NCBI GenBank assembly: GCA_025360525.1
Contig: JANYCA010000144.1
Span: 12,071 to 76,070 of the forward strand
Length of the DNA stretch: 64,000 bases
DNA from: Chitinophagaceae bacterium
Lineage (GTDB): Bacteria; Bacteroidota; Bacteroidia; Chitinophagales; Chitinophagaceae
Direction: 5' to 3'
Shown here: piece after piece, positions 37,601-40,600 of the stretch
Numbering within the stretch: position 1 is the first letter of the stretch
How the letters are laid out: every line of letters begins with the position of its first letter
The notes under the pieces: model-generated
Told to the model about the DNA's origin: nothing
What the model saw: the letters and a program-made list of their open reading frames with translations, nothing else
Database searches by the model: none
Program-made: the position numbers and the translations under genes

Positions 37601-40600
37601 ATTTGTGAACGAGGAAGATGGACAAACCATACCGATTTTAATAGAAATAGGACAGGTGGGTAGTCATTCCCATGGCTTTACCATGCGGCTCAGTGATATT
37701 ACCGGAACAAGCAGCGATCAATACGATAGCGACGGTGCCACAAGAGCCGCAGCAGTACGTCATTCTATTGCTGAATATGCCGGTCATTTCCCATATGGGC
37801 GAGGCTATCTTACTGTTCGTTTTCCCGAAGGAAATATTGACTTGAATTTCGGTATAACAGAACCTATAACTGTGAGGTGCAATCCACGGGATACCGCACA
37901 GGCTTCCGAACGACTGGACGAACTACTACAGATACTGGCCATTGTTGGATTGTTTATACCTGGTGTTGGATTGGCAGTTGCCGCCGTTGGGGCTGCTTTA
38001 TCAGCAGGACGACTTTTAAACCGTTTAAACAACCACACATTTGAGTGGGACACCAACACCGTGATGGATGTTTTAAATATTGTGGGCGCAGTTGCTGGTG
38101 GTGTAAGACATATTGCAGGTGGACGGCTCGTGATTGCTCAACGCATGTTTGCCATAGTACCCGAAAGTGAAGCGTTTGAACAATGGGTTACAAGACTTTC
38201 CAGATTTAACAGGGTAGTTGATTTTGTTGATACCTCCGTTAACCATGTAAGCTATATGCTGGGCATGATGGAGACAGTGAACAATTTCCTTGAAATTCAA
38301 CAGGGAGAAGCCAGTGGTTCTATGACCCATGCAGAAGCACGCCGCCGCAGGGCAGGATTGATGGCACAGGCCATGTACGACCAGTTTATGCAGCATGGTC
38401 AGGATATGGTGGATGCATACCGTGGTGATGGTTCCAGAATAACCCACGACGAAAGAGAAGGCAGTACTTTGCCGCATGATGTACCCCCACCACACGATGA
38501 AACCCGCCGTACCGAAGTACCGGATGATACTACCGGACGGCCGCATGAAGAACGCAGCCCACATGCCGGCGGCGGCGGAGCCCCATCTGCACCAAGACCC
38601 CAATTTACTGGCAACCCTGCCGAACGGGTTCGACAGTTTTTGGGTAACCGGGAAAATGTGCAGGCCCTTCTTAGGGGAGAGCCGCATGCTTTTGGCGAGC
38701 TTTTACAGGTTCATGGTAACTGGAGAGACCTGATAATGATGCTGCAGGGTGAAGCACATAATGATATGTACCAGTACCTGGTGGATGGATTGCAAACCCA
38801 CCGGGATCAAATTAGTGCAGATCTTGCCGAACGATTTGGCTTACACTTAAGCGATCCAAACGCAAGTACACATCCTTCAAGCGACATTGACCTGGCTACA
38901 ACCGGCACCGATGCAGGCGCACGTATGACGGCAGCCGAACGTTATATGCGGGAACATTATGGAGCCAACTGGAGCGATCAACTGCGGATTAATTTTTATA
39001 CTGAAGCAGAAAGGTTATTTATGTACGAGCAGGTAAGACCGCACATGACCGAAGCAGCATTTAGTCAACTGCAGGGCCGTATAACCAACCTGGCAGAAAT
39101 ATTGAATTTTGCCAAGATGCTGCAACATGCAACAGGTAATCCTGAAAGTATTGCAAGGGTAGAACAATTGATGACGCATTTAAATGCAGACCAACAAGCA
39201 CAGGTAAGAGCAAGAGCAGCTGAAACACCAGCCGACTCGGCTGCAAGAGCGCAACAACTGCATGCAGATGTAGATCATCTTGCGGTAAGGTTCGAAGCCT
39301 TGCGCACAAGTTCGGGCACAACTATTCCAGCAGCTGCTATTGGTCCATTATCGGAAACGATACCAGCACATCTTCGTGAAGCTATAACCCGTGCTGTTAC
39401 CCCCGATGAATTGCGGGTGGCACTTGCTTCTGCAATATCCGAATTACAGATGGAGGCAAACTTCCGCACCACCGAAGCTTATATTAGTCCGGGTGCCGGC
39501 AGACAGGTAGTTCGTGAGGTAGCCGTATCTGGCCACGAAGCCTACCAAAGTGCTTTGGGACACCTGGAGATGATGGAACATGCAATTCACCAGGCCGGTG
39601 GAAATGTGGAAACTGCTGCAAGAGAATATGAATTGTATAAGTACATAAACCGTTTTATCGTAGCCATGCAATTGGCCGGTATTCCTGCTAATTCATTTAT
39701 GTTGATGTATTACCAGGCAGCCCACGATATCTACCGCAACAGTCGCACTTCTTTGCAGGATGTAAACCGGCAAGACATGGGTTATCTCCTGGCAATGCAC
39801 AATCATTTTGTTAGCGAAGCTGCCGCAGTACTACCTCAAATGCGGGAAGCTGCCATGCAGAATCCTTCCCTTTGGAACAGCGTACCAAGGTCTCTTGAGG
39901 CCACAGGTACAACTATCCGGGATACATCCGCACAACCACCTTCCACTGTTACCCCATCTGCTGCGGCGCATGCTACGCCATCCGCCACAGGCGCAGTTTT
40001 AACGCAATTGGGCACCATAGGATCGTTGTTGGGTACAGGAAGAGGGATGGTTTCCATAGCTGATGTACCCATACTCCGAAATAGTGCTTTGAGAGAAAAC
40101 GAAACACTTGCAACTTATGCAAACGGAAGATTGGTGCTTGAGCTAGGCCCTAATGCAGGTCACGAGCAAATTCGTCAACACCTGGATACCATCAGGGTAT
40201 TACAACGGTACGAGGGAACCTTAGGGCTTATAAGAAGATTGTTTTCACAAATAGGTGAATTGTTGGGTATGGGTCCGGGTTTTGGCAGCCGTGGCCATGA
40301 GGCCAGGCAGGAAGTTACCAAGTTATTAGGAATCAGGGCCAACCTTGAAGTTAGGAGGCTTGCTATTGAAGCAGCCATGCAACGGGTTAGTGAAAATGGA
40401 TCGTTGGCAGTTTTGCAGGAAAATTATGAAGCATTACTAAGTGAGATATCCAGTATACAAAGTCAGGTTGGTACGCATCAAAGTGAGGTGAACTCTACGG
40501 CTGTTGGTCGTGGTAGTATCGGCATGGCCAGCACTACAGCAACCGGTCCCGTTATGACGGAAAGTAATCCTGTCTTCAGGCACGAACCCGAAGTAGGACA

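Follow-up and report, generated by a model that had tools for sequence, protein, structure and literature searches.

A conserved SDxD module in a DUF4157 cargo protein from an extracellular contractile injection system, a candidate effector enzyme domain

Extracellular contractile injection systems (eCIS) have cargo proteins with a DUF4157 domain, among them Cgo1 and Cgo2 of the Algoriphagus machipongonensis AlgoCIS. Loading of these two was shown experimentally, by particle purification with mass spectrometry or cryo-ET (PMC8894135), and they combine a disordered N-terminal loading sequence, a DUF4157 domain and a variable C-terminal effector region (PMC8894135; bioRxiv 10.64898/2026.05.27.728243). 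Among predicted DUF4157 cargo proteins, 983 of 1130 have no annotated effector domain (PMC11297309). We analyzed a 64,000-nucleotide window from a Chitinophagaceae bacterium (assembly GCA_025360525.1, contig JANYCA010000144.1, positions 12,071 to 76,070 of the forward strand) and focus on a conserved module, built around a Ser-Asp-x-Asp motif, inside a 2204-residue open reading frame (ORF). We assign this ORF as a predicted eCIS cargo protein because it encodes eCIS_core/DUF4157 and Ntox4 domains and lies between the tape-measure and AAA+ genes of an eCIS operon. Like Cgo1 and Cgo2, the window cargo begins with a polar, weakly conserved leader followed by DUF4157 and a C-terminal effector region, and it belongs to an eCIS operon with an AAA+ ATPase. 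Unlike Cgo1 and Cgo2, which measure 498 and 1228 residues, it is far longer and places several domains in series along its 2204 residues. Independent domains strung on one huge secreted or injected polypeptide with flexible linkers between them also recall MARTX toxins, although in concept only, as delivery here would be by a phage-tail-like particle and no repeat regions or cysteine protease domain were detected in the cargo. We find that the module is an undescribed domain family within this known kind of system, and we propose, with about an even chance of being right, that it is by itself an effector enzyme domain and founds a new family in DUF4157-type eCIS cargos.

The motif at the center of the module lies in the segment NASTHPSSDIDLATTG (residues 1419–1434, nucleotides 38859–38906) and is followed by LRINFYTE (residues 1460–1467, nucleotides 38982–39005), which begins 41 residues past the start of the first segment and 31 past D1429. 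A preliminary description of the window had read this pair as the possible signature of a divergent nucleotidyltransferase (NTase) acting as a warhead within residues ~1340–1750. The motif is present in the frame and with the residue numbering given there, at 38862–38894 in that account, and the proposed domain is close to the one we modeled, residues 1340 to about 1775. Loss of the aspartates in homologs had been named as grounds for abandoning the idea; D1427 and D1429 are instead kept in 133–134 of 135 family members, far beyond chance. The remark that alanine replaces the canonical glycine holds across 78% of the family, with glycine in 10% and proline in 8%. Conservation extends well past the motif in the 135–161 family members that could be aligned: 92% of them retain S1421 and 96% retain G1438, 80% have an acidic residue at position 1467, and R1400, D1557, Q1615, N1619, A1625, H1659, G1666, Y1675, E1676, K1679, Y1680, R1683 and R1714 are each kept in ≥92%. 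At position 1624, 84% of members carry Glu, and Glu and Asp together account for 96%. In all, ~20 polar or glycine positions reach ≥92%, and the Y-E-x-x-K-Y-x-x-R series at residues 1675–1683 would lie on one helix face.

We used AlphaFold2 (AF2) with a 21-sequence alignment to model the module and obtained a confident structure, with a predicted local distance difference test score (pLDDT) of 89.6 and a predicted template-modeling score (pTM) of 0.88. With low-complexity linkers on either side, the module is a discrete, self-contained domain. The model is nearly all helical, with three short strands at residues 1414–1415, 1428–1432 (IDLAT) and 1462–1466 (INFYT) that DSSP assigns both in this model and in a second AF2 model of a separately predicted 132-residue core crop (pLDDT 84.4). 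Helices at residues 1387–1411, 1437–1452 and 1456–1460 complete a small core in which A1420–S1421 sit in a loop and E1467 stands directly behind the last strand. The core thus runs from a long helix through a short strand, a 12-residue [AG]S loop and a strand that starts with SDxD to a helix and a final strand, and in the model the order and lengths of these elements read like a minimal NTase core.

This resemblance raises the alternative that the module is a true, highly diverged homolog of the Pol-beta NTases, for example an AMPylase, cyclase or tRNA-modifying toxin, with D1427 and D1429 as the metal carboxylates and [AG]S1421 as a degenerate G[GS] motif. As in the minimal NTases (MNT, PF01909; PDB 1WOT and 7AE2 chain B), the module places an invariant S-D-h-D-h sequence (h, hydrophobic) at the start of a strand within the same alpha-beta-loop-beta-alpha-beta order, and 10% of the family even carries GS. 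When the cropped core was compared by Foldseek with 350,542 PDB chains, 7ae2_B, 7ae9_G and 1wot ranked 1, 3 and 10, although the ranking and the motif are not independent evidence, as Foldseek also scores residue identity. A profile made from genuine minimal NTases picks out 7ae2_B, whose sequence occurs in both 7ae2 and 7ae9, under the name "MNT antitoxin" and 1wot as a minimal nucleotidyltransferase. Alignment by hhalign of a 135-sequence core profile with 23 aligned minimal NTases from genomes (PF01909) pairs FG...SDIDL of the core with FGS...SDIDI of the enzymes (P 9e-4 for one comparison), with a local probability of 22% over 40 columns and a global probability of 3.7%. Motif counts in the source genome point the same way. 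The bare SD[ILVF]D[ILVFM] pentapeptide turns up often: of 5265 six-frame ORFs, 26 contain it, and most of these are plainly not NTases (for example PurE, GMC oxidoreductases, SusD, TonB receptors and the eCIS spike). The extended [AG]S-x4-12-SDhDh pattern is rare, with five ORFs comprising three minimal NTases, the cargo and one further NTase-like ORF with an incidental match, and it is largely NTase-specific in this genome. On contig C181 of the same genome, a 157-residue ORF contains an NTase-like IGGYAV...DLDV sequence together with an incidental GS...SDIDV match, a caution against reading such motifs alone.

Several results weigh against NTase-like enzymatic activity of the module and against Pol-beta homology. 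The whole model returned no significant match among the 350,542 PDB chains (best E 0.03, TM score 0.10), with no NTase among the 50 matches listed, and a Foldseek search of BFVD gave nothing significant, both searches yielding only helical-bundle noise; the NTase fold expected by the preliminary description was therefore not recovered. The NTase matches of the cropped core are themselves sub-threshold (E 0.23–0.99, probability 0.12–0.14, TM score 0.20–0.35, root-mean-square deviation 6–10 Å). Pfam searches at E≤10 with 21 module sequences found no NTase family and only scattered chance matches, and phmmer with the module and hmmsearch with its profile found nothing relevant among all PDB sequences. 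Masking the five motif columns lowered the hhalign score from 23.5 to 9.1, into the range of the controls (10.9 for a reversed profile and up to 15.6 for column-shuffled profiles), and SDIDL accounts for all of the sequence similarity to minimal NTases. The spacing from [AG]S to the first aspartate is 6 residues, compared to ~10–13 in this genome's genuine enzymes, no acidic residue stands at the start of strand 3, and the sheet has only three short strands. Finally, a conserved module followed by variable tails is what one would also expect if it served delivery or were a pre-toxin module.

The individual hallmarks of the Pol-beta superfamily are divided. The [DE]h[DE]h element is present as D1427-I-D1429-L at the start of the modeled strand 1428–1432, whereas an hG[GS] element is missing at canonical spacing, which would place it at the end of strand 1 and about 9–13 residues ahead of the first catalytic Asp, as A1420–S1421 lie too near D1427 and the alternative F1411–G1412 has glycine in only 55% of members. 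A third carboxylate would be expected as h[DE]h on the neighboring strand 3, beside the DxD; the acidic residue 1467 follows strand 1462–1466, and the matching position near the strand start is N1463 (62% Asn). The module further differs from minimal NTases, which have four or five strands, in that its core, surrounded by ~300 helical residues, has no profile similarity to these enzymes outside the motif. An NCBIfam scan found no NTase family for the module, and a profile search aimed at small stand-alone relatives, as possible bridges to NTases, returned one family fragment only. Pol-beta superfamily membership is not demonstrated for the module, and we regard such homology, which would make the module a stripped-down NTase derivative and a special case of the effector enzyme, as possible but rather doubtful. 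The earlier NTase inference was reasonable, yet it was based on a pattern that has atypical spacing here: the folded domain, the invariant aspartates and the NTase-like local order stood, and the fold and family assignment was not demonstrated. Other families with DxD or His/Asp motifs (HAD, Toprim, GT-A glycosyltransferase toxins, class II adenylate cyclase toxins, terpene synthases, HEPN, SGNH hydrolases, TBC GAPs and lysozyme-like folds) fit poorly in fold or motif context and were set aside, and none appeared among the 50 Foldseek matches listed per search.

We next consider how the module is distributed. A full HMMER scan with residues 1335–1790 found 147 relatives among 1.84 billion representative proteins, and a word-seeded search found 31 full-length relatives, mostly of 2000–2200 residues with DUF4157. 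The genomes with module loci belong to Bacteroidota, Armatimonadota, Chloroflexota, Cyanobacteria, Acidobacteriota and Proteobacteria, and at least 10 of 25 loci have eCIS genes within 10 kb of the module gene. The module was found in none of 40 relatives of the source genome, including 24 of the same genus, which makes it a rare accessory element with a horizontal distribution. A 63%-identical homolog is present in Marinigracilibium pacificum, a cultivable eCIS producer. Cluster look-ups for the relatives returned only "DUF4157 domain-containing" or "hypothetical" entries, plus evident mis-annotations. Five Armatimonadota loci (L015–L018 and L025) have the module gene between eCIS sheath and tube genes, and all share one conserved ~260-residue tail family with no Pfam match.

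Region-by-region comparison of homologs separates the module from the variable tip of the cargo. Distant homologs conserve only DUF4157 (30% identity) and the module (27–35%), and the 1000 residues between the two, together with everything behind the module, fall to 7–13%. We collected 87 C-terminal tails longer than 120 residues, which form 31 clusters, most without a Pfam match; the tail is Ntox4 in the window cargo and its closest homologs only, and a TNT NADase domain in homolog P0043. A conserved trunk with interchangeable C-terminal toxin domains is the arrangement of polymorphic toxins (Ntox, TNT and related Pfam families), which likewise join conserved N-terminal parts to interchangeable tails behind low-complexity linkers. 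Unlike their domains, the module matches no described toxin or pre-toxin Pfam family and can be terminal, and no immunity gene was identified. From this pattern of conservation across regions it follows that the module is not the polymorphic tip. The word warhead therefore applies in part: the tip is the Ntox4 end and the module sits in the conserved part of the protein, although it can itself be the terminal domain. We read the module as one of at least two payload domains in the window, with the variable Ntox4 as the polymorphic toxin tip.

The same architecture allows a second alternative, in which the module is non-catalytic and serves the variable toxins as a structural refolding, membrane-translocation, target-binding or pre-toxin element. 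Its status with DUF4157 as the sole parts conserved in distant homologs, its place just upstream of a variable tail behind a flexible linker, as in pre-toxin modules, and the failure to recognize an enzyme fold are all consistent with such a role. However, the module is more than a spacer, as it closes complete ORFs at three loci on long contigs, with no toxin behind it: 2 residues follow it in L009 (1914 residues), 10 in L020 and 5 in L021 (1142 residues). The L021 locus (7760–15538, Candidatus Brachybacter algidus) is an array of three DUF4157 genes encoding 1142, 352 and 671 residues, each with DUF4157 at residues 97–170 and each with its own kind of C-terminal region; an OmpA-like gene lies between them, and a tblastn search found no eCIS structural gene within 10 kb. 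The first gene of this array carries the module in its C-terminal effector slot. The module also occurs outside eCIS in P0143 (MEO3927570.1), a 3109-residue protein of a Micromonosporaceae bacterium that has a WXG100-like N-terminus, a papain-fold glutamine-deamidase toxin domain at residues 788–891, the module at residues 946–1244 with GS-x4-SDIDL retained, and then ~1800 unannotated residues. We classify P0143, from its domain content, as a very large multi-domain type VII-style toxin, which would use a different export route. Together with the near-invariance of ~15 charged or polar residues (D, D, D, E, H, Q, N, K, R, R, Y, Y), unusual for a scaffold, these proteins make a purely non-catalytic role unlikely in our view.

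Terminal position also bears on a third alternative, in which the module would be an auto-processing domain, cleaving the polyprotein inside the target cell and so freeing the C-terminal toxin, a role like that of the MARTX cysteine protease domain. The multi-domain architecture with flexible linkers and the invariant Ser, His and Asp residues would suit such a function, but no protease fold or family was matched, the HExxH of the DUF4157 domain is a more obvious processing candidate, and a module at the very end of a protein has nothing to release. We consider auto-processing highly improbable.

We favor the interpretation of the module as an effector enzyme domain because it can be terminal, travels between secretion systems and keeps ~15 charged or polar side chains. 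In the mechanism we propose, the cargo would thread into the tube lumen in a largely unfolded state, be expelled into the target cell and refold there, where the module would act through a candidate metal- and phosphate-binding center. A divalent metal would be bound by D1427 and D1429, possibly with D1557, E1624 or E1676, and a phosphorylated substrate by the Gly-rich turn at the N-terminus of the following helix (G1434, A1437 and G1438). The Y1675-E-x-x-K-Y-x-x-R1683 helix face and R1714 may provide further substrate contacts, and a belt of invariant Gln, Asn, Glu, His, Tyr, Lys and Arg residues from the helical half would complete the center. The likeliest chemistry would be Mg2+-dependent nucleotidyl or phosphoryl transfer from a nucleoside triphosphate to a molecule of the target cell; NTase-like chemistry is possible but unproven. 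More tentatively, the module might be a new enzyme fold, in which a three-stranded NTase-like S-D-x-D hairpin is set into a large helical substrate-binding scaffold, and might act as a nucleotide-transferring effector in the injection systems of at least six phyla and in an actinobacterial type VII-style toxin.

Only two parts are conserved within this family of cargos, which have ~1100–2200 residues and occur in several phyla, and the module is one of them. Its confident predicted structure, which has no known relative, and its obvious set of candidate catalytic residues make it a definite, testable way into the function of eCIS effectors. An enzyme would constitute a new toxin domain family and possibly a new fold, and a delivery module would be relevant to the engineering of cargo loading.

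Table 1. Features of the cargo gene and its conserved module, in window coordinates
Feature	Position (nt)	Strand	Basis
eCIS cargo gene P0001	34605-41219	+	stop-free ORF, 2204 aa; contains SDxD motif
Cargo leader, aa 1-190	34605-35174	+	polar, weakly conserved: 11-16% identity to homologs
eCIS_core/DUF4157 domain, aa 192-267	35178-35405	+	Pfam PF13699, E 2.2e-28
Two Gly/Ala-rich hydrophobic helices in trunk, aa 1107-1178	37923-38138	+	read off sequence
Pro/Gly/His-rich linker preceding module, aa 1281-1339	38445-38621	+	low-complexity; 5-25% identity, low coverage in homologs
Conserved module, aa 1340-1775	38622-39929	+	147 relatives; AF2 pLDDT 89.6, pTM 0.88
Mini alpha/beta core, aa 1387-1467	38763-39005	+	DSSP of both AF2 models
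Invariant S1426-D1427-I-D1429	38880-38891	+	kept in 133-134 of 135 family members
Second conserved block, Q1615...R1683	39447-39653	+	≥92% each in ~160 aligned members, except E1624
Thr/Ser/Ala/Pro-rich linker behind module, aa 1776-1830	39930-40094	+	5-34% identity in homologs
Ntox4 toxin domain, aa 2053-2139	40761-41021	+	Pfam PF15541, E 1.2e-6, 29.2 bits (cut-off 25)

The cargo gene (Table 1) lies directly 3′ of the contractile injection system tape-measure gene (33081–34565) and ahead of the AAA+ gene (42281–43600). The operon is complete, with Pvc16_N, phage sheath, T4 gp19-type tube, VgrG-like spike and tape-measure (E 8.5e-104) genes upstream. Loading of Cgo1 and Cgo2 requires their disordered N-terminal domains (bioRxiv 10.64898/2026.05.27.728243), and by analogy the cargo leader is a candidate loading sequence. 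The DUF4157 domain contains HELTH at residue 257, and Pfam and NCBIfam searches of the whole protein annotated no family between DUF4157 and Ntox4. Behind the module, pLDDT is low from about residue 1779 onward, in the linker, and the stretch that follows (residues 1831–1975, nucleotides 40095–40529) has no family match, is 61% identical in close homologs and is not conserved beyond them; lying between module and Ntox4, it may be part of the exchangeable tail. A 314-residue ORF (41212–42156) overlaps the cargo stop codon. It has a 61%-identical homolog in locus L004, where the adjoining cargo has an unrelated tail, and no homolog near L001–L003, the loci that share the Ntox4 tail, a distribution that makes it unlike an Ntox4 immunity gene. 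A leader common to this ORF and the cargo was rejected, as their N-termini have no significant similarity. Within the cargo trunk, the two Gly/Ala-rich helices have the sequences ILAIVGLFIPGVGLAVAAVGAALSAG and VLNIVGAVAGGV; this region is 42–67% identical in close and mid-distance homologs, and the helices look like a membrane-insertion or glycine-zipper element.

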